Below are positions 30,663 to 61,102 of a stretch of 64,000 nucleotides of DNA, in pieces. Source of the DNA: an uncultured Actinomycetes bacterium. GTDB taxonomy: Bacteria; Actinomycetota; Thermoleophilia; RBG-16-64-13. Under the pieces are notes generated by a model. That model ran no database searches. It had not been told where the DNA came from and saw nothing but the letters and a program-made list of their open reading frames with translations. Each line of letters starts with the position of its first letter. Position 1 is the first letter of the stretch. Location of the stretch: contig CAWFCL010000010.1 of assembly GCA_963814365.1 (NCBI GenBank), positions 7,342 through 71,341 of the forward strand, given 5' to 3'. The position numbers and the translations under genes are program-made.

Positions 30663-30672
30663 GGCGACTCTC

Positions 30673-32664: not shown

Positions 32665-33118
32665 GCCGCCTCATCCTCGGCCGCGGACCCGCTGACCGCG
32701 TCCAGTAGCGCGTCGAGCTTCTCCACGGTCAGGTGCCCGTGGAACTCACCGTCCAATTTGATCACCGGAGCGATGGAACAGGCCCCGAGACACGCCACGC
32801 TCAACACCGAGAACCGGCCGTCGGCGGAGTTACCGTCGGAACGTAGCTTGAGCCTCCGCTGGAGGTGCTGCGCCAAGGTCAGGCTCTGCTTCACGTGGCA
32901 CGCCGTCCCCCTGCACACCTCTATGACGTGCTCACACAGAGGTACAAAGCGGAACTGGTTGTAGAAGGTGGCAACGCCGTACACACTGGCGACGGGAGTG
33001 CCCAAAGCCTCGGCCAACTCCGACCATAGCGGATTGCGCGAGGATACCCTTCTCTCTCTTGTAGCTCTTGCAGAAGGGGTATCAGGTCGTCCCGGCTGAG
33101 GTCGCTGCGTCCCTGCAA
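32661..33118 (-). pseudogene. hydC: 2Fe-2S subunit HydC (NuoE-like), one frameshift as assembled
   Basis: MQGRSDLSRDDLIPLLQELQEREGY|(shift at CCC 33047-33049)|SRNPLWSELAEALGTPVASVYGVATFYNQFRF...CRGTACHV...CLGACSIAPV. The stop overlaps the hydB start (ATGA). Confidence 0.85.
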
Positions 33119-42266: not shown

Positions 42267-42298
42267 TCCACAACCCGAACCCAGCCGAGTCCGCACCT

Positions 42299-43499
42299 AT
42301 GGACAGACTCAGGTACCACGACATCCTTTACGACGACACCCAGCTGGGTCCGTATCCGGACCACCTTCTCAAGCGTGTGGCCGAGCCCACCAACCGGATA
42401 CCCGGGCCGATAGAGCGCCGCTCCGAAAGAGAGAACGTCTTCAACAAATCGCTGATGGGTGACTTCGGTGACGAGACCCAGCGCGAGTTCAAGCGACTCT
42501 CAGAACGCTACCCCATCGTCGCTGCGATCCACGATCTGCAGACGCACATCGCCGCCTAGGGCAAGAACCGCACCCCGGTCGCCGCAAAGAAGGCGCCCAT
42601 CCCCGAAAACCCTCGAGTGATGAGCCGCCACCTCAAGGCTCTCGGCTATTACCTAGGCGCGGACCAAGTGCGTATCGGGCCTCTGCCGCCGTCGGCCGTC
42701 TACACCGAAAACGTGATGGGCAAGCCCATCGACGCTCCCTACAAGTACGCCATCGTGTTCGCCTGTCGCAAGAACCCCCAGGCCATGACCGCCTCCAACG
42801 GCTGGGACAACATCGTCAGCCCTCTCAGCCACCAGGTCTATCAGAAACTGGCAGTCATCACCGAGGTCGCCACCGGCTACTTCGTCGGCTGGGTATCGAT
42901 GCGGTGCCCTCGTATTTCCGCGGCTACGTGACTCTGATGCCGGAGATAGTGCTGCGGGCCGGTATGGGCGAAGTCTCGCGCATGGGCATCGTCCTCAACC
43001 CGTTCTTCGGTTGCCACTGCAAGTACGCGGCAGTGCTGACCGACCTCGAGCTCGAGCCGGACGGCTGCGTCGACTTCGGTCTGCAGCAGTACTGCGACGA
43101 CTGCACCATCTGCTCCGAGCAGTGCCCGTCACGGGCCATCCCTCGCGGGAAACAGACCCTGCACAACGGTTACTACACCTGGAAGCTGAACGCACGCGCC
43201 TGCTCCGACTTCGGCATCCTGAACAAGGAAGGCACCGTCTGCGGTCGCTGCACCAAGGTGTGCCCTGGAACCGCCCCGACATGGGTCCCCGCGATTTCGC
43301 CGAATGGGACGGAAGCTTGGAGTGGCTGCACAAGACCGTGAACGAACAACGTGAGCGCAATATCGCGAACGATTTCGTCGACCCACGCGAGTACACTCAT
43401 AAGTGGTGGTTCCGCCTAGAGGACCGTGACGGTGAGGTCATACGACCCTCAGACAAGAACTCGCAGAGAATCTGCCGGGAATACCCGATACAGGAGTGA
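42299..43499 (+). pseudogene. reductive-dehalogenase-like (RdhA/QueG superfamily) Fe-S protein without Tat signal; in-frame TAG plus two frameshifts
   Basis: MDRLRYHD... then TAG at 42557-42559 in frame. It continues RVMSRHLKALGYYLGADQVRIGPLP...YKYAIVFA. After a shift at ~42900 it reads ...GMGEVSRMGIVLNPFFGCHCKYAAVLTDLELEPD..FCDDCTICSEQCPSRAI...CGRCTKVCP, and after a shift at ~43270 it reads WNRPD.... Confidence 0.55.
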
Positions 43500-43503
43500 T
43501 GTC

Positions 43504-43874
43504 ATGGACGCATTCGCACCTCTGACCACTACTACCGACATGTCGCCGGGAAGCATGAAGCTGGTCTCTCTAGGTGGACAAGACTACCTGGTGGCCCGAG
43601 TCGCAGACGAGTACTTCGTCACCGACAGTAGGTGCCCCCACCTGGGCGGGCATCTCGACAAGGGCACGCTTCAGGGTGCAGTGATCACCTGCCCGCGCCA
43701 CGGCTCACAGTTCGACCTGCGGGACGGACGCGTCGGCGGTGGACTGACTGGCAGGGAGCCACACTCAAGGTCGCCACGACGATCAAACATCCGCGTGGGC
43801 TGAAGACCTACGCCGTGAGGGTCGACGGCGACACCTTGCTGGTGGGACCCGAGGTGGCTGCCCCGGCCGACTGA
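43504..43874 (+). pseudogene. Rieske [2Fe-2S] ferredoxin-like protein, one frameshift as assembled
   Basis: CPHLGG...CPRHGSQFDLRDGRV|(~43735)|RWTDWQGATLKV...LKTYAVRVDGDTLLVG. Confidence 0.7.
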
Positions 43875-43928: not shown

Positions 43929-44127
43929 CTACTTGTCCTCGAGCATCTGCTCCACCTCCGACATGCGGCCTTCGGCCAGCTCTTCAGAGATGTAGACCTT
44001 CCCGCACTTGGGGCAGGCGGGGACCTCGTGAGCGACGGTGTGCCCCATGTACTCGAACACCACCTTCTCTAGCTGCCAACTCCCGGTCGCACTTCATGCA
44101 CCTCAGCACCGGCTCTTCCGCGCTCAC
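43929..44127 (-). pseudogene. small zinc-ribbon protein (YgiT/MqsA-type finger-like), one frameshift; not in ORF track
   Basis: Own translation from GTG 44127 (overlaps the corrected stop of the upstream oxidoreductase, GTGA): SAEEPVLRCMKCDREL|(~44070)|EKVVFEYMGHTVAHEVPACPKCGKVYISEELAEGRMSEVEQMLEDK*. Confidence 0.5.
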
Positions 44128-46409
44128 TTGGAATCCCCCCCTTGTTCGAAGCGCATGCGGTGGTAGTACGCCCGGACGACCTCATATGTCGCCGGGTCCC
44201 GCCTGCCTGTAGCGGACCCAGTAGGTGACCACCTGCTTGATCATGCTGCAAACATAGGTGTCGTCAGCTGCGTCATAGAACTTGTCCCCAGACTCCTCCG
44301 CCAGCCAGATGGCCTCCCTGAGGTCGGCGGCGGATATGAGCTGGCCGTCCAATCTCCTGCTGCAGCTCGTCGCCTATGACCAGGGTCAAGCGCATCCCAG
44401 GGGTGAGACTCCGGCTGGAAGTCCAGGTCTTGCATCTGCTTCATCAGCTCCCTCTTCACCCTCAGGCTGTTGTCACGCTTCTGCTGCAGGCTCGGCACTC
44501 GCGCGCCTGGGTCCAGTCCAAAGACCACATCCAGCACATGGGCGCACGGCTTGCCCCGGGAGACGAACACCTCTTTACAGTTGGCACAATATACGATGTA
44601 CGGGCTGTCGCCGGCCTCCGCTCTATGCCGGGTGATCTCGTCATACAGGCCAGGGTTTGCCACCCGGATGTGGCCGCCGTGCCCACAGCAACGATTGTGC
44701 TCTTTGAGCTCCTCCAGCTCCACCCCTGCCTTGCCGGCCAACTCCCTTACCCCGGACTCCATCCCCGTATCACCTCTAGCCGCGCAGGGATCGAACACCG
44801 CCGCCTTGGCGTAGGGCGCCCCGGGCGCGGAAGCCGCCGGGGACGCTGAAGGCGCAACGCTATCTGCCTGAGCAAGCAGCTCATAGAGCGAGACCCCGGG
44901 AACCTCCGGCAAGAACGAGCGGAAGAGACTCACACAGGTGGCGCAGGCGAACACCAGCGTGGGCTTGCCGAGGTCGTCCCAGGTCCTCTTGGTCGCCTCC
45001 AGGTTGGCCTGCAGACGGACGTCGTCACCCGCCCAGTAGGCCGGGGCTCCGCAACACCCCAGCATCACACCCGCCTCGTGGGTCTCTCGCAAGAAGTCGT
45101 ATGCCCGCAGCACGTGCTCGGGGTTCGACGCGCCCAGTTGGCAACCGGGATAGAAGGCGTATTCGCACGTCTGCTTCCCCTCCGGCGCGGAGGCGAACGC
45201 ACCCTCGGCGGTAGCGAAGTCCATCTCGCGCAGCCAGAAGTCGTGCAGCGCAGCCGGATGCACACCGGCGCTCATCCGAGCGGACCGGGAGAACTGCAGC
45301 AGCGCTCCCATATCCACGTCCACCGGGCAAACGGATTTGCAGTAGCCGCAGATGTTGCAGGAGTAGGTCTCCCTGGTGAGGGAACGGCTTGATAGTGGGG
45401 GGCTCGCGCCCATGTCCGTGAACACCTCGTCCGCGATCTTGTGTGGGTCCTTACGGAAGGCCTTGAGCATCTCGCAGGCCTCTATACACGTTTCGCAGTC
45501 GCACAGCATGCACCGAGAAGCTTCGCGTTTCGCCTCCTCTTCCGTGTAGCCGTCAGGACCGGAGGGCTGCACCAGAGGCGCAGAAGCCACCCCGCGATGC
45601 TCCAAGAAACGACCACAGCCTTCCTGGTCTTCGCGCTCGTGCACCCGCGCAGGCTTGCCCGTCTGCAAGAAGGCCTCGATCACCCGAGAGGCGCCGGCCC
45701 CCTGGGCGATGCCCTCCATCAGCCCGGCTCCGCACATCGCACCTCCCGCGAACACTTTGGGCACCGCGGTGGTGAACAGATCGCCGTCCCATCCGGAACA
45801 TAGGCCAAAGGAGTCGCCCGCCGAGCCCGCGGCCACATAGACCGCGTCAAAGTCGGCGACTTCGGCGAGATCCCGGACTTCGGCGCCGTAGCGGAAGTCC
45901 ACCTGCACGGCCGAGAACTGCAGGGCGATGTCCGCGTCGAACTCGGCGAAGCGAGGGTGCGAGCGCAGGGCCCCGCCCCACCCCTCCTGTCTGTCAAACA
46001 CAGTGACCTGGTACCGCTTCTGGGCCAGATGCAGAGCGCAGGAGAGCCCCGCCGGTCCCGCTCCGATCACGGCGACACGCTGGCTCTTGGGGGGTATCAC
46101 ATACGACTGCGGCTTCCGTTCACGCACGTGTCGCAGACAGGCGGCCTCCAAGTCGCGCAGTGCCAAAGGTTCATCGCCGAGTACCACTCGCTGGCAGCAC
46201 TCCCTGCATGGCTGCTCGCAAAGCGCGCTGACGATAGCCGGGAACACGGTGGCATCGCGCAACACCTTGTAAGCGGCGCCCCACCTACCCTTGGCCGTCT
46301 TGTCCAGAAGAGACCGGATGTCCATGCGAAAGGGGCACGCATACGAGCAGGAGGCAGGCTCCCCTCGAAAGCAGGCCGCGGTGTACGCCGTGGCGTCCTC
46401 TGGTCTCAC
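44124..46409 (-). pseudogene. FAD/NAD(P)-dependent oxidoreductase (GltD-like) fused to Fe-S and CCG (HdrD-like) domains; three frame changes in the last ~100 codons
   Basis: VAVIGAGPAGLSCA dinucleotide fold; CMLCDCETCIEAC and CNICGYCKSVCP clusters; CCG motifs GCCGAP and NRCCGHGG. The corrected tail is ...ESHPWDAL/TLVIGDELQQEIGR/QLISAADLREAIWLAEESGDKFYDAADDTYVCSMIKQVVTYWVRYRQAGPGD/EVVRAYYHRMRFEQGGDSK*. Confidence 0.8.
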
Positions 46410-46431
46410 TGGTGCACGACCCGACCAGCCC

Positions 46432-49259
46432 TTATAGCGGGTTGGCTTTGATCATCTCCAGCTCTTCCTCGAAGTCGGTGCCCAGATAGTACTTGGGCGG
46501 AGTCAGGTCCTCGCCGCGCTGCTTGGCTTCCCACCCAGCCTTCACCTTCTCGGGCGTGGCCGGTAGGGCAGTAGATCCGCACTCCGCAAGCATTGTTGAT
46601 GGCGTTGATCACAGCCATATGGTTTGAGCTCTGGAACACCTCCGAGCACCCGCACGAACCATGCGGCCCCGCCGGACGGGGAGTCTCAAGGAACACGACG
46701 TTGATGTCGTCCGGGATCACGTCCACCGTCGGGATGCCGCAGCCGATCATGTTGCCGTGCTTGTCCTGGGCGTCGTAGTCCTCACTCAGCGCGAAGCCGA
46801 TGGAGTGGGAGAGTCCACCGTAGCCCTGCCCCTCCACAGAGAGCATGTTGCCTACGACCCCCACATCTCCCACCCAGGTGAACCTGAGCACCTGCGTCTT
46901 GCCGGTCTGCACGTCCACCTCCACCAGAGCGACGTTGACCCCGTACATGTAGGTGGGGTTCTTCTCCCCGTGGCCGGTGTTGGGGTCCAGCCCCGGAGGC
47001 AGGCCAATGTTGAATTGGTCGTAGTGACCCAAATACTTGGTGGGGATGCCCTCCGCCACCATCTCTTCGTAGGTGCGGTACGTGCCGTCCTCTTTGCGCA
47101 TGGCCTCCATCAACTTGTTGGCGCCGTCGATGGTGGCGTTGCCGGCCATGTAGTGGGAGCGGCTGGCCGCGGCCAGGTTGGTGTCGGGGCAGGTCTTGCT
47201 GTCGTTCATCACCAGCCGTACTTGTTCGGGCTTGATGCCTAGCGGAGCGAGCGCCTTGACGGTGTGAGTGAGCGTCCCGATGTCGCCGCCTTGGCCCATG
47301 TCCTCCCACGTGTTGAAGTGGGTGATGGTGCCGTCGGGGTTCAACTCCAGTGCTATCTCGGCCGAGTCGAACATGCCTATGGTGATGATGAACCCGCCCA
47401 GGCCTAGGCCTACTCCCACATGCCGACCCTCAGCCTTGGCCGCTTCGGCCTCAGCCTTGTACTTGTCGTAGATGGGCTTGGCCATCTCCAGCAGTTTGGG
47501 ATACACGTAGTCGTGATAAGGGGCGCTGTTGATGGTGAGATCGCCTGGCCGCGCGGCGTTCTTGTACCGGAACTCCCAAGGGTCGATACCGGCCTTCTCC
47601 GCGGCCATGTCGATGAGGGCCTCTGTGGTCGTGTACACCTGAGGAGAGCCGAACCCGCGATATGCAGTGTTGAAGTTGTGGTTGGTGGTGCCTCCGCGGG
47701 CGAGCGCCTTGAAGTTCGGGATGTTGTAGCCGTGAAAGCCCACCGAGACCAGGTTCATGAAGATGGGCACGGTACCGTAGGCGCCTTGGTCCAAAGCTAT
47801 GTCGTACTCGGCGGCGATGATCTTGCCGTCCGAATCGCAGGCCAGCCGGCCGTTGGAGTAAGTGGCCGATCTCTTGCCGGTGGCATGATTGAACTCGTCG
47901 TAGCTGAGGCTCAAGGTGCAGGGCATATCCAGGTTCTGAGCAGCTGTGGCCACAAGAGCGTGGATATTCGGGGCTATGGTGTATCCGAAAGAGCCGCCGA
48001 CGGTGTTCAGGATCATGCGGATGTTCTCTGTGGGGATGCCACATGCCTGAGCCACAAGCCCGGAGTTCTCGGAGAGGTTCTGGCACTTGCACTGTATGGT
48101 CATCATGCCATCGACGCCCCAATAAGCCTGGACGACATCAGGCTCGATGGGCAGGTGGGGCTCGTGCTGAGAATGGAAGCTGCCCTCCACCACCACCGGC
48201 GCCGTCTCGAACAGCTCGACGGTGTCCTCACCTTTGAACACCGGCTGCTCCAAGTACCAATTGGGCAAGGTCTCGTGCAGCTGAATGGCGTTGGGCATGA
48301 CCGCCTCGGGGAAGGTCATGTAAGAGGGCAGCACCTCCAGGTCCTGCTTCACCTTCTTGGCGGCCTCGCGAGCGTGCTCCTCGGTATCTGCCGCGACCAG
48401 CGCGACCACATCGCCCCGCCGGTTGATCTTCTTGCCGGCGATCACCGGGAACTCCGTGACTCCTCTGCCCTTCTGCCGAGGCACGTGCGCAGGCCCGGCC
48501 ACGTTGTTGGTGCCCTTCACGTCTGCGGCGGTCAGGACCCTGATGACACCGGGCATCTTCTCCGCTTCTGAGGTGTCGATGCCGTTGATCTTCGCGTGGT
48601 GGGCCTCGGCGAGCACGACGGCCAGATGGGCGACCCCTTCGGGCATCTGCAGAGCCACGTCCCTACCGTAGTCGGCCAGACCTGTCACCTTGGCCAGAGC
48701 AGTGGGTCGCGGATGGTTCGATCCGTAGATCTCCTCTTCGCTCTCGAAGTCGTAAGTGATGTCCTGCATGGTGGCCTCGCCCCGCATCACCTTGGCCGCC
48801 TCCATCACGGCATCCACCAGCGGCTTGTAGCCGGTACAGCGACAGACGTTGTGATGAGCCTTGAACCAGTCGCGGACTTCCTCGCGAGTCGGTGAGAGGT
48901 TCTCCGCCAGCAGTCCGTACGAGGAGACGATGAAACCCGGGGAGCAGAAGCCACATTGCGCCCCACCGTAGGTGATCCAAGCCTGCTGTAGAGGATGCAG
49001 ATGTTGCGGAGTGCCTATGCCCTCGATCGTGGTGATCTCGCTGTGTTCGGGCACCCGCTTCATCTTCTTGGTGCACGAACGAACCACCTCGCCGTTCAGG
49101 ATGCACCGAGCAGGCTCCGCACACCCCCGTGCCGCACCCGACCTTGACTCCAGTCAGACCCATGCGACGGAGGACTTCCGCCAGCGAGTCTTTCTCGGGA
49201 TCACACAGAACGAATCTCTCGACGCCGTTGATCTTGTAGCCCAGTCTCGCGAGTCTCAT
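46432..49259 (-). pseudogene. mop: Mop-type aldehyde oxidoreductase (2x[2Fe-2S] + molybdopterin, no FAD domain); one frameshift near each end as assembled
   Basis: N-terminus MRLARLGYKINGVERF...GLTGVKVGCGTGVCGACSV|(~49103)|ILNGEVVRSCTKKMKRV...GGAQCGFCSPGFIV...CRCTGYKPLVDAV closely parallels Desulfovibrio gigas MOP as I recall it. The central 893-aa ORF is intact. The C-terminus GVRIYC|(GGG run 46566-46568)|LPATPEKVKAGWEAKQRGEDLTPPKYYLGTDFEEELEMIKANPL* has its stop at 46432-46434. Confidence 0.9.
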
Positions 49260-49261
49260 GC

Positions 49262-49375
49262 TTCCCTCTCCGTATCGTGTCAGGAATAGAGTCTGCTCCC
49301 GGTCACCTGCGCCGCGCGCCTACTTGTATAGTCTAGCGCACGGTTCCAGGCGGGCGCCATATCTATATAGGCTCG
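49262..49375 (-). promoter_or_regulatory. candidate structured 5' leader of mop (possible Moco-riboswitch-like element)
   Basis: The 103-nt intergenic region reads on the minus strand ...ACCCGAGAGGCGAGCC-UAUAUAGAUAU-GGCGCCCGCCUGG-AACCGUGCGC-UAGACUAUACAAGUAG-GCGCGCGG-CGCAGGUGACCGGGAGC.... It has GC stems with AT-rich loops, and the CGAGCC and GCCUGG elements are reminiscent of the Moco motif. This rests on memory only; no covariance model was run. Confidence 0.25.
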
Positions 49376-50733
49376 CCTCTCGGGTACAGACGCGCACCCG
49401 TCGAACTGGTGAGATTCCACAGGCAAAATGGTACGAGTCCTCGCTCCGGTACCAGCACGTGGATGCAGCAACGTCGAACTCGCTCCAGGTCGACAGTCCA
49501 TGCATCCTGGAACACCATGCCCGAGATGCAAAGGATCCTGTCCCCCTGCTCCAGCAGACGGTCGAACCCGTCACTCTCTCCCGTTCCTTTGCCCATCGCC
49601 TTGCCTGGCGCGCCCGTCGTCGGGCGCCTACCCCACTGTCGCGAAGTGGCCTTGATGGCCCGACGCGCAGCCCCCTCTGTCTCCGGCTGACAACACGAAC
49701 GGGTCGAGCTCAGCAGTTCCAACCCGCCGTCTTCGCGCAGCCAGTAACGCGCCCGGAACGAGCAGCGCACATGCTCGCAACAACTGGGAGAGAAGTCGCC
49801 CACCCGCACGCTGCCGGATGTCTGCTCCTCTAGGAGCCGCAGAGCCTCGGGCAACGTGAGTCGAGGACGGTCGCCTTGCGCGAACCTGCCGAAGTAGCTC
49901 ACCGGTTGCAGATGAACGCCACGCACCACACCCGGCCACTGGGTGGCCAGGCGGACAAGTGCACCCACCTCATGGTCGTTGACTCCCGGGACCACCGTGG
50001 GCACCAACACCACCGCAAGACCGGCTTCAGCGCAGCGCCGCAAAGCTGACATCTTCTGGGCGGCCAGAGGCCGCCCCCTGAGCGTGCGATACACCGCGTC
50101 GCTGACACCGTCGAACTGCAAGAACACAGACACCAAGCCGGCGTCACGCAGTCTCTCCGCGTACCCGGCTTCCGCCGCCAGCCGCAGGCCGTTGGTGTTC
50201 AGCTGCACGAAAGTGAAACCGACCTCTCTGACAGTACGGATGATGTCCGGCAGGTCGTCCCGCACCGTAGGTTCTCCACCGGACAACTGGATGTTCACCG
50301 CACCTTGGGAGGCAAACAGCTCCCGCAACATCCCCTCCATCTGCGGGAGCGAAGGGTCAGGCTCCACTGCGTCCGACGCAGATTCGGCGAAACATATGGG
50401 GCAACCCAGGTCACACCGGCGCGTCACCTCTAAGAGCGCAGTGCAGGTGTGCTGCTCGTGTCGCTCGCAGAGCCCGCACTCCCCGGGACAACTGTGCGAG
50501 ACAAGGCCATCGGCGTCGGTAGCGGCCCGGGCGGCGTCGCGCCTGTCGCCCCGGGCGGCGCCCGGAGCGGCGCTCGGGCCGCACCAGGACTCCATCGAGG
50601 GCGGGCCTATCCAGACAGGGGTGCTCCACTCCCCGTGATCGGGGCATCGCCCGCGCAGAGTCACCGTCTCCCCATGCGTCTGCAGCTCAGCCGGTACCGC
50701 GCTGAGACAGACCGGGCATAGGCTCTCCGTCAA
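49363..50733 (-). CDS. radical SAM protein with N-terminal zinc-ribbon and C-terminal Cys-rich domain
   Basis: CDLGCPIC (CX3CX2C) followed by the GGEPT motif (LSGGEPTV). The N-terminus has CPVCL...CPDHG and the C-terminus has CCIHVLVPERGLVPFCLWN. 456 aa, intact. Confidence 0.85.
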   Translation of the reverse strand: MTESLCPVCLSAVPAELQTHGETVTLRGRCPDHGEWSTPVWIGPPSMESWCGPSAAPGAARGDRRDAARAATDADGLVSHSCPGECGLCERHEQHTCTALLEVTRRCDLGCPICFAESASDAVEPDPSLPQMEGMLRELFASQGAVNIQLSGGEPTVRDDLPDIIRTVREVGFTFVQLNTNGLRLAAEAGYAERLRDAGLVSVFLQFDGVSDAVYRTLRGRPLAAQKMSALRRCAEAGLAVVLVPTVVPGVNDHEVGALVRLATQWPGVVRGVHLQPVSYFGRFAQGDRPRLTLPEALRLLEEQTSGSVRVGDFSPSCCEHVRCSFRARYWLREDGGLELLSSTRSCCQPETEGAARRAIKATSRQWGRRPTTGAPGKAMGKGTGESDGFDRLLEQGDRILCISGMVFQDAWTVDLERVRRCCIHVLVPERGLVPFCLWNLTSSTGARLYPRGEPI

Positions 50734-50750
50734 GCGGACACCGGCGGCCG

Positions 50751-51478
50751 TCAGACGCCTGCCCGCGGTCGTGCCACCATCAGGTAGTATCCCGGCCGAG
50801 AGGCCTCGACGGCCGCTGCGGAGCTCGGCGTCGTCGCCCAGCGCAGCCTCCCAGAAGTCGCGCTGCCGACCCGTACGCGAAGATCAACGAGGCCATGAGT
50901 CTCTTGAGCGTCTCCGATCTGTCTTGCCAGACGCATATCTCAAAACCGGCGCTCTCGAAGAGCGCGATGGTCACCTCCTGCCCGGATGCTCCTCGCAGAC
51001 AATTTGCCGTAGCGATCGCTCCGAGCGGTGCACCTTCTTCCGGTGCCCTTAGATACAGGTCGGTCACACCCAGCACCCCGTTGGGCCGTAGGATGCGCCG
51101 CACCTCGCGCAGCACAAGCGCCGGATCATCCAACGCAGACAAGAGACACTCACAGAAGCAGGCGTCGAAGTAGCCGTCGGGATAGCCGATATCCTCGGCC
51201 CGGCCCAGCACCCAAGTGACTTGCTGGTCACGCGCCCCGGCTTCCGCGATGGATGCAGCAGAGCCGTCCAGGCCTACGGCGGTCACACCGCATGTACGAG
51301 TCAAGAAGGACGCGGTCGCTCCCACCCCACAACCTACGTCTAGGACCCGCTGACCCGCCTCAAGAGCACATGCGAAGGCAAGTTCTGCGGTCAGGTCCAA
51401 ACCGCCGGGGCGGAGCTCCGCACCTGAGGCGATTCGGAAGCGGGGCTGTTCGTATAGGCTACGGGTAATCTGTGGCAC
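50751..51478 (-). pseudogene. class I SAM-dependent methyltransferase, two frame changes in the last ~40 codons
   Basis: VLDVGCGVGATASFL motif I; LRPNGVLGVTD. The corrected tail is ...LIFAYGSAA/DFWEAALGDDAELRS/AVEASRPGYYLMVARPRAGV* (stop 50751-50753). Confidence 0.8.
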
Positions 51479-51570
51479 GCATCACTCCCACACCGCCGCT
51501 TGGTCGCTTTCCGACCTATCCAGAGTTACCATTCTGCCACAGTCTCGTGTCCTAACCGGAGGAGAGGGCC

Positions 51571-52020
51571 ATGAACAGGAGTGAGCATGCAGCGGAGCGG
51601 CTGCGTTCGGGACTCAACTGCGCGCAATCCGTCCTGGGAGAATTCGCCGAGGGGTTGGGACTCGATCTGGACCTAGCCGACCAGGTGGCCTGCGGTTTCG
51701 GAGGTGGCATGGGGGGCCTGGGGGGAGCGTGCGGAGCCTTAACCGGCGGCATCATGACGATAGGCCTGACTGTGTGCGGCTCCGGCGCCGGTGACCAATC
51801 TCCTAACGAGCGCATAGACGGCCTTGTCCAAGAGTTCGTCGGCCGGTTTGAGAAAGAGCACGGCTCCACCCTATGCCGTGAGCTCATAGGTTGCGATGTG
51901 AGCACCCCGGAGGGCCTCGCACAGGCTCAGAGCCAGGGACTTTTCGCCACGCTCTGCCCCCGGTTCGTGGGATATGCGGCCGGCATCCTGCAAGAGATGT
52001 TCCCAGAAGAGCTATCGTAG
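51571..52020 (+). CDS. C_GCAxxG_C_C family protein
   Basis: LNCAQSVL ... GGACGALTGG ... TLCREL ... ATLCPRFV gives the C / GCAxxG / C / C pattern. RBS GGAGGAGAGG. Confidence 0.85.
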   Translation: MNRSEHAAERLRSGLNCAQSVLGEFAEGLGLDLDLADQVACGFGGGMGGLGGACGALTGGIMTIGLTVCGSGAGDQSPNERIDGLVQEFVGRFEKEHGSTLCRELIGCDVSTPEGLAQAQSQGLFATLCPRFVGYAAGILQEMFPEELS

Positions 52021-52043
52021 AGCAGACGGGGCACTGCCAGCGA

Positions 52044-53384
52044 ATGCCCGTCTCCTTGACACCTCTCGAGCCTTGGATCGCCCACAAGATCGGACAGTCG
52101 GGCGGACCGCTGCATCGAGAGACGCTTGCCGCCTACCAACTGACGAATCTCAACCGGACGCTGGCCTTGGCCCAGACGCGAAGCCGGTTCTACGGTCGCC
52201 TCCTGGGCGCCGACGATATTCGACTGGCGCGGTTGGACGGACTGGCGGACCTGCCCTTCACCACCGCCGACGAGCTCCGAGCCGCACCACTCGACTTCCT
52301 GTGTGTACCTCAACAAGAAGTCGAGAGGATCGTCACCCTACCTACCTCTGGCACCACCGGAACGCCAAAGCGGATCTTCTTCAACGCCCGCGACCAAGAG
52401 CTGACCATAGACTTCTTCCATCGGGGCATGTCGACCATGGTCGTCCCCGGAGACAGAGTCCTGATACTCCTTCCGGGCAGCCTCCCTGGGAGCGTCGGGG
52501 CGCTTCTGCAAGAAGGCCTATCGCGTATGCAGGTGGAAGGCATCCCCCACGGTCCCGTGCGCGACCTCCGCCACACCCTGGAAGTCATAGAACAACAGCG
52601 GGTGACGGCGCTGGTGGGAATACCCATCCAGGTCCTGAACCTCGTCAAGCAGGCCCAAGCCGACCGTCGGCCTACGCCCTCGACGCTCAAGACTGTGCTC
52701 CTTACCACCGACAGAATGCCCCGCTCCGCGGTCCAGAAGATCGAACGGACCTGGGGCTGCGACGTCTACGATCACTACGGCACTACAGAGATGGGATTGG
52801 GCGGAGGCGTCGACTGCAGAGAGCGCGCCGGCTACCATCTGCGAGAGGCCGACCTTCTGTTCGAGATCGTCGACCCGGCCACAGGTCGCCTGATGCCCGA
52901 CGGAGAAGTCGGCGAGGTGGTCTTCAGCACTCTCACCCGCGAGGCCATGCCGCTGCTCCGCTACCGGACCGGCGACATGGGACGCTTCCTACCCGAGCCC
53001 TGCCCCTGCGGGACCACACTCAAACGGATGGCACACATCGACCGGCGAGTCTCGGGCGTCATCACCCTACCCGGCGGCCGCACGCTCAGCCAGGGCGACT
53101 TCGATGAGTCACTCCTTCCCGTAGACGGACTGGCTGATTTCAAGGTACTGTTCGACCACGGTCCCAGCGGGGCGAACATCGTCATCCGCGTCCGCGCGCT
53201 AGAGGGTACTGCCGGGCCAGACAGGGACGAGATTAGGCGGGGGCTCGACGGCATCCCGGCACTGGCCGCCGAGATGGACGAGGGGCGAGTGTCCGTCACT
53301 GTGTCGGACTGGGAGAAAAGTGGCGTGGTCAACTCCGGTACAGCGAAACGGACGATCGAGCACCTGCGGGAGACCGCCGTATGA
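52044..53384 (+). CDS. AMP-dependent CoA ligase, phenylacetate-CoA ligase (PaaK)-like
   Basis: ATG at 52044. TSGTTGTPK P-loop-like AMP motif, YGTTEMG, RYRTGDMGR. The tracked ORF start at 51891 overlaps the previous gene and is rejected. Confidence 0.85.
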   Translation: MPVSLTPLEPWIAHKIGQSGGPLHRETLAAYQLTNLNRTLALAQTRSRFYGRLLGADDIRLARLDGLADLPFTTADELRAAPLDFLCVPQQEVERIVTLPTSGTTGTPKRIFFNARDQELTIDFFHRGMSTMVVPGDRVLILLPGSLPGSVGALLQEGLSRMQVEGIPHGPVRDLRHTLEVIEQQRVTALVGIPIQVLNLVKQAQADRRPTPSTLKTVLLTTDRMPRSAVQKIERTWGCDVYDHYGTTEMGLGGGVDCRERAGYHLREADLLFEIVDPATGRLMPDGEVGEVVFSTLTREAMPLLRYRTGDMGRFLPEPCPCGTTLKRMAHIDRRVSGVITLPGGRTLSQGDFDESLLPVDGLADFKVLFDHGPSGANIVIRVRALEGTAGPDRDEIRRGLDGIPALAAEMDEGRVSVTVSDWEKSGVVNSGTAKRTIEHLRETAV

Positions 53385-54415
53385 ACCTGGACACCGCTCG
53401 TATGGGCCTCTCTCTCCTTGAGCAGGGAGAAGACTTCGCCTGGACGGCCATCCTTGTCACCCATGGATCTTCCCCCCGGCACACCGGAGCCTCCATGTTG
53501 GTGAGGGTCGACGGCTCGATTTCGGGCACCATAGGCGGTGGCCCCCTAGAGGCTACCTGCATCGCGCAGGCCGTGGACGCGATCAGGACCCACAGCAACC
53601 GGTTGGTGCAGTTCGATTCCGCCGAACTCGGGATGGCCTGCGGCGGTGGAGGCCGAGTGCTCATCGAATCCGTCCAGGCCGGCCGACCCGGCACGGCCGA
53701 CCTCTTGCGGGCCATAGTCCGGCTCTGGGAGCTGGGGACCAGAGGGTGGCTGGTCACGTCGGTGCCACAAGAGCAAGGCCTGGATGCCCCGATACGCCGA
53801 TGCCTTGTCCACTCAGATGGCTCAGTCACAGGCGAACCGGTCTGCGAGCCAGAGGATCTGCAGGTGTTGGCTGAGCGGGGTGGGACATATGACCGCCTGT
53901 TGGCGGATGACCCGGCCCGCATCCACATCCAGTCGATAGGCGCCAACGGGAAAGCGTATGTGTTCGGGGCCGGGCATTGCAGCCACAGCTTGGTGCCCGT
54001 GCTCTCGGCATTGGCCTTCTTCACCGTCGTCGTCGACGATCGCTCGGACTTCGCAAGCAGGGAGCGTTTCCCGACCGCGGATCAGATCCATATCCCCAGG
54101 TCGTTCGACAACGCCGTGGCACCGCTGTCCGTGGACGAAGACAGCTATCTGGTGATCGTCACCCGAGGTCACAATCACGATAGGAGCGTTCTCGCCCAAG
54201 CGCTTAGGACGCCGGCGGCCTACATCGGCATGATAGGCAGCAAGAAGAAGGTCGCGGCAACGTTCGCGGCCCTCAGCGAAGAAGGCTTCTCCAAGGACGA
54301 ACTGGCGCGCGTGCATGCGCCCATCGGGCTCCCCATAGGCGCGGAGACTCCCGAAGAGATCGCCATCAGCATCGCCGCCGAACTCATCCAGGTAAGAGCC
54401 GCCAAGAACCGGTGA
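53381..54415 (+). CDS. xdhC: XdhC/CoxI family molybdenum cofactor insertion chaperone
   Basis: GSSPRHTGASMLV...GTIGGG N-domain and a Rossmann-like C-domain (YVFGAGHCSHSLVP...IVTRGHNHD...YIGMIGSKKK...APIGL.IGAETPEEIAISIAAELI). The start overlaps the ligase stop. Confidence 0.9.
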   Translation: MNLDTARMGLSLLEQGEDFAWTAILVTHGSSPRHTGASMLVRVDGSISGTIGGGPLEATCIAQAVDAIRTHSNRLVQFDSAELGMACGGGGRVLIESVQAGRPGTADLLRAIVRLWELGTRGWLVTSVPQEQGLDAPIRRCLVHSDGSVTGEPVCEPEDLQVLAERGGTYDRLLADDPARIHIQSIGANGKAYVFGAGHCSHSLVPVLSALAFFTVVVDDRSDFASRERFPTADQIHIPRSFDNAVAPLSVDEDSYLVIVTRGHNHDRSVLAQALRTPAAYIGMIGSKKKVAATFAALSEEGFSKDELARVHAPIGLPIGAETPEEIAISIAAELIQVRAAKNR

Positions 54416-54443
54416 GGCTGATGTCATCGACCCGCGATTCCGG

Positions 54444-55595
54444 ATGATCCGCGGCGCGAAGACAGCGGCCATCGTCTTAGCGGCCGGTAGGTCGTCGCGC
54501 ATGGGGAGCTTCAAGCCCCTCCTGCCGCTTGGATCCTGCACAGTGCTGGAGCGAGTTGTCGGGGCCGTTACCGAGGCTGGTGTACAGGACATCGTAGTGG
54601 TCACCGGACACGAGTCCGCAAGACTCACGCCCGTGCTCGACAGGCTGCCGGTCCGATCCGCCCACAACGCCGACTACGACAGCGGGATGTTCTCCTCCGT
54701 GCTCGCGGGCGTAGCTGCCCTGCCGGCCGATGTAGAGGCATTCTTCGTACTACCGGCCGACTACCCTCTGGTGAGAAGCCAGGTCTGTAGCCGCCTGCTC
54801 GCCGCCTTTACTGATGGCGACTACGGGATCGTTCACCCCACCACTTGTGGGCGGCGCGGCCACCCTCCCCTGCTCGCCGGACGATACGCGAAGTCCCTGC
54901 TGCAAGACCCCGATGCACGCGACCTGGGCAGCTTCTTGCAGAGACACACCACGGACACAGGGCACGTGGAAGTCCAAGACCTCTCCATCCTGATCGATAT
55001 CGACACCGAAGACGACTACCGTAGGACGTGCCGATTGGCGGACCCCGATCCACAGAGGTGCTTGTCTCGCCAGGACGCCCTGTACCTTCTCGCGTTGCTC
55101 GGCACGCCAGAGCGCGTGCTCGAGCACTGCCAGGCCGTCTCTGCCGTCGGCGAGGCCCTGGCCCGCGCACTGCAGCCTCATGTGCCCACTCTGGACGTCG
55201 AACTCGTGAGCACGGCCGGCCTGCTGCACGACATGGCACACGCTTGCGAGAGACATGCCGAAGTAGGAGCGGCGCTGCTGTACAACCTCGGTCTGGACCA
55301 CCTGGCGTCAGTGGTGGAGTGCCACATGGTGCTGCCCGAGAGCCTTCAGCAGACTCGGGAACTCACGGAGGAGCATCTGGTCTATCTGGCCGACAAGTTG
55401 GTGGCCGGCAGCGAGTTGGTCGGTCTGGAAGAGAGGGCCGCCCGCAAGACCCGCGAACTGGGCGGCAGCGAAGCCAGCCCCGAAGCGCTCCAGGGTATGG
55501 GGGACAGGATGGCGGTAGCCCGCGCCATCCGCGACAAGGTGGAGGCGGCGCTGGGCGCCCCGATCCAAGAGGTGCTCACACGAGCGGTACAGTAG
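54444..55595 (+). CDS. MobA/MocA-like NTP transferase fused to an HD domain
   Basis: AAIVLAAGRSSRMGSFKPLLPL...VVTGH...LPADYPLV (nucleotidyltransferase), then GLLHDMAH...VVECHM (HD). Confidence 0.85.
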   Translation: MIRGAKTAAIVLAAGRSSRMGSFKPLLPLGSCTVLERVVGAVTEAGVQDIVVVTGHESARLTPVLDRLPVRSAHNADYDSGMFSSVLAGVAALPADVEAFFVLPADYPLVRSQVCSRLLAAFTDGDYGIVHPTTCGRRGHPPLLAGRYAKSLLQDPDARDLGSFLQRHTTDTGHVEVQDLSILIDIDTEDDYRRTCRLADPDPQRCLSRQDALYLLALLGTPERVLEHCQAVSAVGEALARALQPHVPTLDVELVSTAGLLHDMAHACERHAEVGAALLYNLGLDHLASVVECHMVLPESLQQTRELTEEHLVYLADKLVAGSELVGLEERAARKTRELGGSEASPEALQGMGDRMAVARAIRDKVEAALGAPIQEVLTRAVQ

Positions 55596-55597
55596 AC

Positions 55598-56242
55598 ATC
55601 GTCGTTTACCTGGTGCGGCACACCGAGCCGGCCTCGGCGGAAGGTCAGTGGCGCTTCCTGGGACGCGCGGACCCGCAGCTAAGCCCCGCCGGAGTCGAGC
55701 ACGCGCACAGACTGGCTCGGGCGCTCGGCCCAGTCCACTTCGACTCCATCTACAGCAGCGACCTGACCAGATGCCTGCAGACCGCGCAGATCATCGCGGG
55801 CTCGGGCGGCCCGCCGCACGCAGAGCGTGATGTCCCGGTGCAGCCGGACGCCCGGTTCAGAGAGATCGATGTCGGGCTGTGGGAAGGCCTCACGCGCGCA
55901 GAAGCGGCGGAACGCTACCCCAAGGAGTACGAGCGGCGAGAGCGCGACGTGGTCGCAAGTCCCTTCCCGGGCGGGGAGAGCTTCGCGGACGTCCGCGAAC
56001 GAGCACTGCCGGCTTTCTACGACATGGTCGCCCACAGCGGCGACAGCGTCCTTATCGTCGCCCACAAGGGAGTCAACCGAGTGCTCCTCTGTGAGTTCCT
56101 GGGCCTGCCCCTGGACCAGCTCTTCTCACTCCGCCAAGACTACGGCTGTGTGAATATCGTCAGGGCTTCTCGCCACGCCGACGGCCCCCTGAGCATAGAG
56201 GCCGTCGAACCCGACGTCCGTCTCGGCGGAGACTACTTGTAG
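55598..56242 (+). CDS. histidine phosphatase family protein (CobC/phosphoglycerate-mutase-like); start codon unresolved
   Basis: VYLVRHTEP (RH catalytic motif), REIDVGLWEG, IVAHKGVNR. There is no canonical in-frame start between the upstream stop (55593-55595) and the RH motif except GTG 55613, which would delete strand beta1. Confidence 0.75.
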   Translation: MVVYLVRHTEPASAEGQWRFLGRADPQLSPAGVEHAHRLARALGPVHFDSIYSSDLTRCLQTAQIIAGSGGPPHAERDVPVQPDARFREIDVGLWEGLTRAEAAERYPKEYERRERDVVASPFPGGESFADVRERALPAFYDMVAHSGDSVLIVAHKGVNRVLLCEFLGLPLDQLFSLRQDYGCVNIVRASRHADGPLSIEAVEPDVRLGGDYL

Positions 56243-58732: not shown

Positions 58733-61102
58733 ATGCTGGAGCCCATGCGTCAAGGTGGACAAGAACAGCAGCCTCTGTCGACTGTGGGCAAGAGCCTGCC
58801 CCGGGTGGACGCCCGCGACAAGGTGACCGGCACGGCGGAGTACGCCAGCGATCTGCAGTTGCCCGGGATGCTATACGCCAAGGTGCTGCGCAGCGCGCAC
58901 GCGCACGCCAAGATACTCTCTGTCGACACCAGTAGGGCGGTAGCCCTCCCCGGGGTCAAAGCGGTCATCACCGGCGCCGACATGCCCAAGGACCCGCCGC
59001 TGGAGGCCCTGCGCAAGGAGTTGTTCGCGGTCCCGCCCTACTCGCTGGCCACCGACAGAGCACGCTACACGGGCGAAGAGATCGCGGCGGTGGCAGCCAC
59101 AGACGAGCGCACAGCCCAGGAGGCGCTGAGTCTGATCGTCGTGGAATACGAGGAGCTGCCGGCGGTGGTCGATCCCATGGAGGCCATGAGACCTGGCGCC
59201 CCCCTCATCCATGACGACGCCCCGGACAACGTCCACTACCAGAACGAGTTCGAATATGGCGATGTTGACGGAGGGTTCGCTGAGGCCGACCGCATCTTCG
59301 AAGACACCTACAGCACCCAACTCGTGCACCCCAGTACGCTGGAGCGGACGGTATGCCTCGCCAGCTTCGACAGATTCGGGTATCTGACCTTCTACGACAA
59401 CTCCATCGACCCCTACAAGCAGAGCCGCTACCTGCCCAAGTTGTTGGGCATCGCGCCCAGCAACATGCGGATAGTGCAGAAGTCCAACGGCAGCAACTTC
59501 GGTGCCCTGCAGGGCAACCTCACCCCCTACATCATCTGCGCCCTGCTGGCCAAGAAGGCAGGCAGGCCGGTCAAGCTCGTCTACACTCGCGAAGAGGAGT
59601 TCGTGAACGCTGGGCCTAGGGCCGTCGCCGTGTGCCACCTAAAGACCGGCGTCAAGAATGACGGCACCATCACCGCCAGAGATATCCGAGTAGTCACCAA
59701 CGCCGGCGCCCATGCCTATCTGGGGCCGCCCATGATGATCAGTGGCTTCACCCCCTGTGCCGGTCTGTACCGCTGCCCCAACGTGCGCTTCGAGGGCAAG
59801 TGCGTCCACACCAACACAGCGGTGGTCTCGCCCTACCGGTCGTTCGGAGTCGTACCCGTCGCCTTCGCGGTGGAAGCGATGATGAACCTCATCGCCGAGG
59901 AGCTGGGCATCGACCCGGTGGAGCTCAGACTGAAGAACATGACCCAGCAGGGTGACGTCACCGTGGTCGGTCAGAAGATAGGCAGTTGCGGACTACCGGA
60001 GTGTATTCAAAGGGTCGCAGACCACATCGGCTGGAACGCTAAGCGGGGCCAGTTACCTGCCAATCGGGGAGTGGGCATGGCCTGCGGCATGTTCGATTCC
60101 GAGGTACGCAACGCACCTTTCTCAGGGTCGGTGGCCTACGTCAAGGTGCTGGAGGACGGCAAGGTCAAAGTGATCTCGGGCGAGTTCGAATGGGGACAAG
60201 GTTCGCACACGGTGCTTTCGCAGATCGCTGCCGAAGAACTGGGGGTCCCGCTCGACCAAGTGCTCTTCTCCGAGCTCGACACCGCGGCAGTCCCCTATGC
60301 CTTGGGCCCCTACGGGGGCGGACCAGTGACCATGCGCGGCGGCAACGCCGTACGCCTAGCCGCCATCGAAGCCCGCAGACAACTGCTGCAGACGGCCGCC
60401 GGCCTGCTGGCGGCGGACCCGGAAGACTTGGAGTTGGCCGAGCAGAGGATCACGGTAAAGACGGACCGCACCAAGTCGCTATCTGTGGCCGAGGTGGCTC
60501 ACCACGCCAAGTTCATCCTAGCCGAGGAGGTCATCGGCCGCGGGCACTTCGAGCCCGACACGGTGATGCGCGACCCCCGCAACTACTACGGCGACTACTC
60601 CAGTGGATACACCTTCACGGCGCAGACCATGGAGGTCGAGGTAGACCCCGATACCGGGCAGGTCAAGATCCTGGACGTCGCCTCGGCCATCGATCTGGGC
60701 AAGGCCATCAACCCGATGGCGGCCGAGGGTCAGAACGAAGGTTGTCTGGGCCAGGAGTTGGGCCCGGTGATGCTGGAGGGTATCGTCTACGACGGACAGG
60801 GCAGAGTGGTCAATCCCAACCTGATCGACTACCGGCTCCCGACGGCCCTGGACGTGCCGCCCATCAAGGGTTTCCTGGTGGAATCCCACGAGCCCAACGG
60901 ACCGTACGGCGCCAAGGCCTGCGGACAGGTAAGCAACATACCGCCCGCGGCCGCGCTGGTCAGCGCCATCTACGATGCAGTGGGGGTACGCATCAAGGAG
61001 CAGCCCATCACGCCAGAGAAGATCCTGAAGGCTCTCGCCGAGAAACGGCAGAACGAGAAGTCTGAGGGCGCGAAGGAAGCGGGGCGGGATGCGACTGCCT
61101 AA
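58733..61102 (+). CDS. xanthine dehydrogenase family molybdopterin-binding large subunit
   Basis: GKSLPRVDARDKVTGTAEYASD, GGNFG-type motif (SNGSNFGA), and a C-terminal dimerisation domain. 789 aa, intact. Confidence 0.9.
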   Translation: MLEPMRQGGQEQQPLSTVGKSLPRVDARDKVTGTAEYASDLQLPGMLYAKVLRSAHAHAKILSVDTSRAVALPGVKAVITGADMPKDPPLEALRKELFAVPPYSLATDRARYTGEEIAAVAATDERTAQEALSLIVVEYEELPAVVDPMEAMRPGAPLIHDDAPDNVHYQNEFEYGDVDGGFAEADRIFEDTYSTQLVHPSTLERTVCLASFDRFGYLTFYDNSIDPYKQSRYLPKLLGIAPSNMRIVQKSNGSNFGALQGNLTPYIICALLAKKAGRPVKLVYTREEEFVNAGPRAVAVCHLKTGVKNDGTITARDIRVVTNAGAHAYLGPPMMISGFTPCAGLYRCPNVRFEGKCVHTNTAVVSPYRSFGVVPVAFAVEAMMNLIAEELGIDPVELRLKNMTQQGDVTVVGQKIGSCGLPECIQRVADHIGWNAKRGQLPANRGVGMACGMFDSEVRNAPFSGSVAYVKVLEDGKVKVISGEFEWGQGSHTVLSQIAAEELGVPLDQVLFSELDTAAVPYALGPYGGGPVTMRGGNAVRLAAIEARRQLLQTAAGLLAADPEDLELAEQRITVKTDRTKSLSVAEVAHHAKFILAEEVIGRGHFEPDTVMRDPRNYYGDYSSGYTFTAQTMEVEVDPDTGQVKILDVASAIDLGKAINPMAAEGQNEGCLGQELGPVMLEGIVYDGQGRVVNPNLIDYRLPTALDVPPIKGFLVESHEPNGPYGAKACGQVSNIPPAAALVSAIYDAVGVRIKEQPITPEKILKALAEKRQNEKSEGAKEAGRDATA

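Follow-up and report, generated by a model that had tools for sequence, protein, structure and literature searches.

What does a radical S-adenosylmethionine (SAM) enzyme do beside a molybdenum hydroxylase that has no flavin of its own? The Mop/AOR proteins of Desulfovibrio (AOR, aldehyde oxidoreductase) have served for about 40 years as a structural model for enzymes of the xanthine oxidase family, and the question is raised by a relative of theirs in an uncultured actinobacterium. The relative is part of a cluster of eleven genes at positions 43929-56242 of a 64 000 nt stretch of contig CAWFCL010000010.1, the whole of which is referred to here as the window. All eleven genes were found by listing open reading frames (ORFs) and by hidden Markov model (HMM) scans, and their content, their coordinates and their arrangement in two divergent operons that meet at 51479-51570 agree with an initial annotation made from the sequence alone. 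The conservation of this neighbourhood across genomes is far beyond chance. Its tightest part is the trio of Mop, an FeS-flavoprotein and a small zinc ribbon protein of the DUF7479 family; next come the radical SAM protein TrsS with a C_GCAxxG_C_C protein, and then an adenylate-forming ligase and a methyltransferase. From this pattern and from the individual proteins we infer three modules, namely Mop with its electron acceptor, a set for maturation of the molybdopterin cytosine dinucleotide (MCD), and a service module built around Cys/Sec (selenocysteine) radical SAM chemistry, a picture to which we give an even chance of being right.

The mop gene (46432-49259, minus strand) was identified by NF045668, Pfam and PDB matches. 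Its translation scores 1052.5 bits on NF045668 for residues 55-891, without about the first 54 and the last 45 residues and against a cut-off of 1100; an N-terminal piece adds a further 43 bits, and the C-terminal piece ends in EMIKANPL followed by the stop at 46432. The Pfam domains are Fer2, Fer2_2, Ald_Xan_dh_C (the hammerhead domain), MoCoBD_1 and MoCoBD_2, which give two [2Fe-2S] domains, the hammerhead and two MoCo-binding domains, and no FAD_binding_5 or other FAD domain was matched by Pfam in the protein. It is thus the same FAD-less single chain as Desulfovibrio gigas MOP/AOR (1VLB, 1SIJ) and D. desulfuricans MOD (1DGJ), and it aligns over its full length with 1DGJ and 1SIJ/1VLB (E-value about 1e-228) with the catalytic Glu kept, at an identity of about 50% to these crystallised enzymes. 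The window Mop falls in a clade of its own and shares about 45-47% identity with the enzymes of Desulfobacterota. In window-type Mop the active-site loop is GSxGCSE[CV][FY]QSS, compared with G[AS]GVGE[LM]PLT in the D. gigas type; a Cys located two positions ahead of the catalytic Glu is thus conserved in the window-type clade and absent from the D. gigas-type loop, and the clade also carries a C-terminal extension of about 25 aa relative to that type. Members of the clade (loci L081-L160) come from Actinomycetota, Acidobacteriota, Bacillota and Desulfobacterota and are 64-96% identical, a pattern that suggests horizontal spread and multiple paralogues per genome. One actinobacterial genome (locus L243; CAVZIK010000006.1, 1.80-1.83 Mb) contains at least four Mop paralogues: one with flavoprotein, DUF7479 and TrsS genes and a divergent C_GCAxxG_C_C gene and without methyltransferase or ligase, one beside a MoeA-like gene, one with flavoprotein and DUF7479 only, and one alone.

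A candidate for the missing flavin is encoded next to mop. The flavoprotein gene (44124-46409, minus strand) matches NF045663, the model named 'diclust_near_Sec', at 585.5 bits (cut-off 530) over profile positions 5-667 of 759, the C-terminal 90 or so positions being lost to frameshifts. Pfam matches to Fer4_20, NAD_binding_8, Fer4_17 and CCG correspond to a layout of a GltD/NfnB-like 4Fe-4S domain, an FAD domain, a 4Fe-4S dicluster and two CCG domains. In alignments to 8oh5_C and 9bov_A there is a clean jump at query residue 208, from chain residue ~299 to ~455, and for 8oh5_C the skipped part is residues 300-454, about 155 aa. Because of this jump the flavoprotein is predicted to be without the NAD(P)H-binding subdomain, an absence that fits a flavin reduced by Mop and not by pyridine nucleotide, and a dedicated electron module, as the initial annotation had proposed, is plausible. 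We also considered GltD itself, the small subunit of NADPH-dependent glutamate synthase, and rejected it, since all GltD-type models score far below their cut-offs and the NAD(P)H-binding Rossmann subdomain is absent. The zinc ribbon gene of the DUF7479 (DVU_1557) family (43929-44127, minus strand; ~65 aa) overlaps the flavoprotein gene by 4 nt, both in the window and in P. indicus. It is present as two pieces in different frames, 43984-44127 and 43929-44063; joined by hand, these give 84 bits on NF045645 (cut-off 60) and 91 on PF24292 (cut-off 27). The protein has two CxxC pairs and ends in LEDK, and LE[D/E]K is the exact C-terminal end in all 146 of 146 DUF7479 sequences.

The design logic of this part has a counterpart in the Escherichia coli ygfK-xdhD-mocA(ygfJ)-yqeB region, which encodes an FAD-less Mo/FeS hydroxylase, a GltD-like FeS-flavoprotein, MocA and an XdhC-like factor. 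E. coli YgfK, unlike the window flavoprotein, retains the NAD(P)H domain, and to our knowledge the E. coli region has no genes for TrsS, the methyltransferase, the ligase, C_GCAxxG_C_C or DUF7479. On the TIGRFAM models for that region the window proteins score far below cut-offs.

Conservation was assessed at 240 loci from many phyla, which were searched with the window proteins and with P. indicus seeds and anchored on TrsS, window-type Mop or D. gigas-type Mop; the percentages that follow are from loci with long flanks. Around bacterial TrsS genes (n=25), Mop and C_GCAxxG_C_C are each present in 92%, flavoprotein and DUF7479 each in 88%, ligase in 84%, methyltransferase in 64% and XdhC in 24%. 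The D. gigas-type Mop clade was sampled through relatives 73-81% identical to the crystallised enzyme, among the matches listed, a search for homologous proteins having given none above 79%, and nearly always lies within a full cluster: at the 42 listed loci flavoprotein reaches 95%, C_GCAxxG_C_C and TrsS 86% each, ligase, methyltransferase and XdhC 81% each, and DUF7479 71%. For window-type Mop (n=35) the values are 80% for both flavoprotein and DUF7479, 63% for TrsS, 60% for ligase, 40% for both C_GCAxxG_C_C and methyltransferase and 17% for XdhC. The accessory genes are thus co-inherited with Mop-type enzymes across phyla, as had been anticipated, although Mop or the trio also occurs without them nearby. 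The smallest accessory set is TrsS plus C_GCAxxG_C_C, seen at L243. The two TrsS loci of the 25 that have no Mop are both in Oscillospiraceae metagenome-assembled genomes (MAGs) in which Mop and flavoprotein, with or without DUF7479, lie on another contig. This separation, TrsS at one locus and the Mop-flavoprotein(-DUF7479) genes on a different contig, was observed in four Oscillospiraceae MAGs (L025, L026, L031 and L048), and there the TrsS gene is followed by a gene for a stand-alone HD protein corresponding to the C-terminal half of the MocA-HD model (e.g. L026, 9878-11927), which links the detached TrsS with the maturation genes. Outside Desulfobacterota, XdhC, MocA-HD and the phosphatase are not common; they are the least constant members of the cluster, and hence no part of a single obligatory pathway with TrsS, contrary to the joint pathway first envisaged.

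TrsS (49363-50733, minus strand) is the Cys form of the protein, apparently intact, and scores 561.5 bits over its full length on NF045646 (cut-off 490), with Pfam matches to PF23545, an N-terminal zinc ribbon, and PF04055. The radical SAM motif CDLGCPIC supplies the CxxxCxxC cysteines C107/C111/C114, and a Cys-rich insert at residues 317-389 includes C318-C319...C324. In two Desulfobacterium MAGs (L188 and L191) a TGA codon is aligned with Cys319, and by this alignment the Sec site of TrsS maps to Cys319, where the window form has Cys. An AlphaFold2 model (predicted local distance difference test score 85.6) has as its only close predicted fold match GDGT-MAS, the glycerol dibiphytanyl glycerol tetraether/macrocyclic archaeol synthase (Tes; PDB 7TOL, 7TOM), with a template-modelling score of 0.73 to 7TOM. 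The sequences match with an E-value of 3.6e-77 and have in common the C6/C9/C30/H33 ribbon and the CPxxCGLC, CDLGCPIC and CCIH...PFC cysteines, but only residues 2-320 and 390-441 align, and 317-389 is replaced by the Cys/Sec-rich insert. Identification of TrsS as the tetraether lipid synthase itself was rejected: on the Tes model NF045702 it scores 327.5 bits, below the cut-off of 450, and the C-terminal lipid-binding region is unaligned.

The genomic context of TrsS is also unlike that of GDGT-MAS, being Mop and not lipid genes, and this argues against a lipid role for the TrsS subfamily. In public annotations TrsS homologues are called 'tetraether lipid synthase' or '7,8-dihydro-6-hydroxymethylpterin dimethyltransferase'. 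Zeng et al. (2022; PMC8941075) listed 456 bacterial 'Tes homologs' as candidate synthases of branched GDGTs; the thresholds used were loose, Mop-linked TrsS proteins would probably pass them, and these may inflate such counts. We note two further observations on the family. In haloarchaea (L054-L071, e.g. L063, 9872-12165) a TrsS-like radical SAM gene forms an isolated pair with a DVU_1556-like methyltransferase gene; the protein scores 339 bits on the TrsS model, below the cut-off but above its score on Tes; the pair has no gene for Mop, flavoprotein or ligase nearby, and its neighbours (DUF547, MCP and a kinase) give no functional clue. A 568 aa C_GCAxxG_C_C-TrsS fusion (P0166; L241, 10001-11707) is on an error-prone contig in which Mop is fragmented too, and it may be an indel artefact joining two genes that normally overlap by 4 nt; it is not used as evidence here.

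The DVU_1556-family class I SAM methyltransferase is encoded at 50780-51478 (minus strand) and scores 201 bits on NF045667 (cut-off 155) over profile positions 3-194 of 213. Among 99 members of the family, E110-C111 is invariant and C160 present in 75%, and C111 and C160 are in register with Cys174 and Cys224 of ArsM, a correspondence that is suggestive and is drawn from alignment ranges only. Assignment as ArsM was rejected (47 against a cut-off of 263 on PRK11873), only two of the four As(III)-binding cysteines being in register. At the head of the other operon, the C_GCAxxG_C_C protein (51571-52020, plus strand) scores 75.5 bits on TIGR01909 (cut-off 47.4) and 103 bits on PF09719; with 43 bits against a cut-off of 103 on NF045669 it was not accepted as the DVU_1555 subtype and is a member of the general family only. 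No relative with a solved structure was found for it. It is followed by the DVU_1553-family PaaK-like adenylate-forming ligase (52044-53384, plus strand, with the start set at ATG 52044), which scores 459 bits on NF045666 (cut-off 300). Compared with phenylacetate-CoA ligase PDB 4R1L (E-value 5e-39) it has the TSGTTG and YRTGD motifs, and relative to PaaK (4R1L, 2Y27) the N-terminal adenylation domain and the motifs are kept whereas the C-terminal domain has diverged; on the PaaK models it scores 129-142, with cut-offs of 646-700.

The last three genes of this operon are the candidate maturation genes. The XdhC-family aldehyde oxidoreductase maturation factor (53381-54415, plus strand) scores 353.8 bits on NF045664, barely above the cut-off of 350, and has the Pfam domains XdhC_CoxI and XdhC_C. 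The DVU_1551-family MocA-like nucleotidyltransferase fused to an HD domain (54444-55595, plus strand) scores 365.7 bits on NF045665 (cut-off 315), with Pfam NTP_transf_3 and HD and a match to TIGR03310 MocA (E-value 4e-41) that is below the model cut-off. These two fit MCD maturation, as had been proposed for them. A branch-1, CobC-like histidine phosphatase (about 55592-56242, plus strand; PF00300, 175.8 bits) completes the operon; it was not accepted as the alpha-ribazole phosphatase CobC, for which it scores 151 bits on TIGR03162 against a cut-off of 162.9. In the HMM scan of the window proteins none of the accessory genes is above the cut-off of any characterised-pathway model, the CobC (151/162.9) and Tes (327/450) scores included, in agreement with the earlier view that they are outside known pathways.

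The three-module arrangement would work as follows. Mop would oxidise an aldehyde at its molybdenum-MCD centre and pass the electrons, by way of its pair of [2Fe-2S] clusters, to the FAD of the flavoprotein encoded beside it, a GltD/NfnB-like protein with extra 4Fe-4S clusters and two HdrD-type CCG domains; DUF7479 could be the small subunit of this flavoprotein or a thiol-type acceptor, and together the two proteins would supply the flavin subunit that Mop lacks. MCD maturation would be the task of the XdhC-type chaperone, the MocA-type cytidylyltransferase fused to HD, and the histidine phosphatase. The remaining module, with a predicted role that is the weakest part of the picture, would have TrsS and C_GCAxxG_C_C as its core, to which the DVU_1556 methyltransferase and the PaaK-like ligase are usually added, and would be a Cys/Sec-based radical SAM system servicing the Mop-flavoprotein complex, either by maturing the redox partner or by making a thiol- or selenol-type group that the partner uses. 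We think that it neither forms a catabolic route of its own nor modifies the Mop pterin. We read it in this way because TrsS keeps the cluster cysteines of GDGT-MAS together with a Cys-rich insert and a Sec site at C319, because E110-C111 of the methyltransferase is invariant, and because no conserved transporter, regulator or further catabolic enzyme was found in the neighbourhood at the loci examined. A more specific version, in which TrsS, C_GCAxxG_C_C, the methyltransferase and the ligase install a covalent or labile S- or Se-containing group, or build an intermediate attached to the LE[D/E]K tail of DUF7479 as carrier, with the flavoprotein-DUF7479 partner of Mop as the target, is a tentative suggestion that we consider unlikely as it stands.

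Several observations weigh against the three-module picture. D. gigas Mop was purified in active form without these partners, and flavodoxin accepts its electrons in vitro (PMC10223205). Eight of the 35 window-type loci have no accessory genes within 10 kb flanks (five with Mop alone, three with the trio only), and two loci, L181 and L194, combine Mop-flavoprotein-DUF7479 with XdhC, MocA and phosphatase and are without TrsS, so that the accessory module is either not obligatory or located elsewhere in those genomes; some of the Mop-alone and trio-only loci are indeed extra paralogues in genomes that hold a fuller cluster (e.g. CAYYTC01 and CAVZIK01). Mop, the ligase and a possible O-methyltransferase amount to three carboxyl/aldehyde-handling enzymes in one operon, which fits a small-molecule pathway too. 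The frameshifts of the window copy, discussed below, are denser in mop-flavoprotein-DUF7479 (about six in 5.3 kb) than in the remainder of the cluster, and real decay of these genes keeps a small share of the probability.

The small-molecule pathway just mentioned would have Mop, the PaaK/LuxE-like ligase, the methyltransferase and TrsS act successively on one organic acid or aldehyde, for example from aldehyde to acid to acyl-adenylate or CoA ester, with carboxyl methylation and radical C-C or C-S coupling, and the flavoprotein would only dispose of electrons. It would account for the single translationally coupled operon, for a ligase that, with its motifs intact, appears to be a true PaaK-type adenylating enzyme and whose P. 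indicus orthologue (L242) has a faint match to the LuxE acyl-protein synthetase, for fatty-acid and sugar O-methyltransferases being among the best named relatives of the methyltransferase, and for the occurrence of Mop-flavoprotein-DUF7479-ligase without TrsS at L175, L185, L189 and L229. We nevertheless think it unlikely: D. gigas Mop has a broad aldehyde specificity, no transporter, regulator or further catabolic enzyme is conserved, TrsS and C_GCAxxG_C_C stand beside Mop without ligase or methyltransferase at L243, and the Cys/Sec-rich nature of four of the members is odd for a carbon pathway. Alternatively, TrsS and the methyltransferase could be an organo-arsenic, organo-selenium or organo-sulfur pair like ArsS/ArsM, for which the Mop complex would only supply low-potential electrons. 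The register of C111 and C160 with the ArsM cysteines, the isolated haloarchaeal pair and the selenoprotein forms of TrsS and C_GCAxxG_C_C would all suit such a pair; the ArsM similarity is weak (E-values of 1e-4 to 1e-6), however, the N-terminal ArsM cysteines were not found, no conserved arsenic resistance genes are nearby, and about one TrsS locus in three has no methyltransferase gene, so that we regard this explanation as the most improbable of those weighed here.

Two further explanations look for the target of the accessory enzymes on Mop or on its small partner. The initial annotation had the accessory genes build or modify the pterin of Mop by chemistry resembling nucleotide-loop assembly, and the enzyme set does formally resemble Hcg-type cofactor biosynthesis. 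The co-location with XdhC and MocA and the adjacency of the detached TrsS genes to an HD protein of the MocA-HD family point in the same direction. The D. gigas-type Mop clade, however, nearly always lies in a full cluster, and yet ordinary MCD, together with two [2Fe-2S] centres, is what has been described for the enzymes of D. gigas and D. desulfuricans (PMC10223205; PDB 1VLB, 1DGJ), an argument that applies to the clade; since in addition the cluster is least constant in XdhC, MocA-HD and the phosphatase and the phosphatase is below the CobC cut-off, a modified pterin fits poorly and we judge it very unlikely. About equally improbable is a scheme in which DUF7479 is a carrier: the PaaK/LuxE-like ligase would load its LE[D/E]K tail, and the tethered group would then be processed by TrsS, the methyltransferase and Mop. 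The precedent would be LysW, to which DUF7479 would be analogous; the invariant terminus of the 146 DUF7479 sequences, the position of the ligase gene directly after DUF7479 in several TrsS-less loci and the faint LuxE match of the L242 ligase are as such a scheme would have them. But DUF7479 tracks the flavoprotein more closely than the ligase, we know of no ANL-family enzyme that loads a protein C-terminal lysine, and the conserved tail could be a mere docking helix.

The three genes of the trio are all frameshifted in the window. By tblastn with the intact proteins of L083 and L089, mop is in three frames with shifts near 49103 and 46569; in the flavoprotein gene the last 90 or so codons need about three frame changes, near 44389, 44353 and 44190, and the zinc ribbon gene has one frameshift near 44066-44075. 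Relative to the closest relative, L154, each shift is one extra base in the window (at 44075, 44190, 44353, 44389, 46569 and 49103), which makes about six single-base insertions in 5.3 kb, none of them in a homopolymer run. The reading frames of TrsS, the ligase, XdhC and MocA-HD are intact; the final 20 or so residues of the methyltransferase may be out of frame, and the phosphatase has no canonical start codon upstream of its first beta strand, the sole nearby in-frame start being GTG 55613. Most likely the frameshifts in mop and in the flavoprotein and DUF7479 genes are mostly assembly errors, because protein identity to relatives is 80-96% on either side of every shift, because the nearest relatives are long-read Microflora Danica MAGs and one of them, L003, is likewise fragmented but at other positions, and because further genes of the window are broken. 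These are three genes outside the cluster: a gene without assigned function at 42290-43500 (plus strand), in three frames where L003 has a single 315 aa ORF; a histidine kinase (17305-18702, plus strand) that stops inside its HisKA domain; and a receiver-domain gene reduced to a fragment (26500-26898, minus strand). For the region outside the cluster, it is these three genes that point to indel errors. Several overlapping ORF pairs that were also considered as frameshifts proved to be normal neighbouring genes, and the codon-usage frameshift detector is noisy. The frameshifts, which the initial annotation had overlooked, might instead mark a decaying pseudogene cluster in which mop, flavoprotein and DUF7479 are truly inactivated and the accessory genes persist. 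The packing of the insertions into one segment and their position outside homopolymer runs, together with the readable TrsS, ligase, XdhC and MocA-HD genes, would agree with decay; the high identity that flanks each shift without stop-rich decay, the broken genes elsewhere in the window and the similar fragmentation of L003 in different places do not, and we consider it distinctly unlikely. The quality of the window sequence is in any case doubtful.

In its layout the window departs from the canonical DVU/P. indicus arrangement. The P. indicus isolate has one co-directional operon with overlapping stops and starts, indicative of translational coupling, in the order MoeA-like, Mop, flavoprotein, DUF7479, methyltransferase, C_GCAxxG_C_C, TrsS, ligase, XdhC, MocA-HD and phosphatase, in line with the DVU numbering that the NCBIfam names imply. 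The window keeps the order of the sub-blocks Mop-flavoprotein-DUF7479 and ligase-XdhC-MocA/HD-phosphatase, but it has two divergent operons, with methyltransferase-TrsS upstream of mop and with C_GCAxxG_C_C heading the opposite operon, a divergent layout also present in L154. The match to the D. vulgaris DVU_1551-DVU_1559 region claimed at the outset therefore holds for gene content and not for gene order, and the window differs from that neighbourhood further in its general type of C_GCAxxG_C_C protein, its actinobacterial host and its three frameshifted genes. In the divergent intergenic region (51479-51570), a GGAGGAG ribosome-binding site precedes ATG 51571; no match to a sigma-70-like consensus was found there, and promoter and terminator scans were uninformative. 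Rfam gave no match over 42-58 kb, and thus no molybdenum cofactor riboswitch.

The boundaries of the cluster are right, because the flanking genes are unrelated to it: on the left a ROK kinase, a PASTA and a Rieske protein, and on the right a 3-hydroxyacyl-CoA dehydrogenase, a BKACE enzyme and a second molybdenum enzyme, of the CoxLMS type. The small Rieske [2Fe-2S] ORF (43426-43803, plus strand) lies directly left of the cluster on the opposite strand. The CoxL/CoxM/CoxS-type molybdenum hydroxylase operon (58733-62632, plus strand), 2.5 kb to the right of the cluster, encodes a 789 aa Mo subunit, an FAD subunit (61029-62108) and a 2Fe-2S subunit (61946-62632). Farther away, an [FeFe]-hydrogenase large subunit gene beside that for a NuoF-like flavoprotein (HydA/HydB type; 28947-32670, minus strand) fits an anaerobic lifestyle and low-potential electron flow, and the host is probably an anaerobic actinobacterium.

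The neighbourhood as such has been noticed before. Nine dedicated NCBIfam models with near-consecutive accessions (NF045663-NF045669, NF045645 and NF045646) are devoted to the D. vulgaris DVU_1551-DVU_1559 neighbourhood, and because of these nine models we take it that NCBIfam curators had already recognized it, as the name 'diclust_near_Sec' also shows. Nine of the eleven window genes reach models of this set (NF045663-NF045668, NF045645 and NF045646), counting the Mop fragment that is 48 bits short, so that the check by NCBIfam/TIGRFAM searches came out in favour of the assignment; the remaining two genes match general families only. The families are not all named after locus tags alone, as had been stated, since TrsS and the 'XdhC family aldehyde oxidoreductase maturation factor' have names of their own. 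TrsS is credited to Haft and Tolstoy (2025, mSystems 10:e0141724) by a 2026 review (PMC13188914), and DVU_1559 is Aor (PMC10920352). No mention of DUF7479 or of the DVU_155x families was found in the literature searched, the D. vulgaris fitness paper based on randomly barcoded transposon sequencing does not mention the DVU155x genes, and in the history of D. gigas AOR flavodoxin figures as the partner and an operon is not mentioned. The cluster is thus catalogued, with predicted roles for its accessory genes, and the observation itself is not new; the window cluster is an actinobacterial member of it with a rearranged layout and a Mop of a distinct clade.

What the comparison adds concerns the enzyme at its centre, whose physiological role and native acceptor are still debated on the basis of in vitro experiments with flavodoxin (PMC10223205). 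Mop is accompanied nearly always by a dedicated FeS-flavoprotein predicted to lack the NAD(P)H site and by a zinc ribbon of the DUF7479 family, and usually also by a radical SAM relative of the archaeal tetraether synthase. The part that TrsS plays for Mop is a genuine question, and one directly testable in D. vulgaris or P. indicus. Should the accessory genes serve to mature or to feed the redox partner, they would define a maturation route that is new for a molybdenum hydroxylase system; and if they do so by way of an S- or Se-containing group or a carrier-bound intermediate, the 'flavin-less' Desulfovibrio aldehyde oxidoreductase would be part of a new aldehyde-driven thiol/selenol redox system with a radical SAM maturation of its own.

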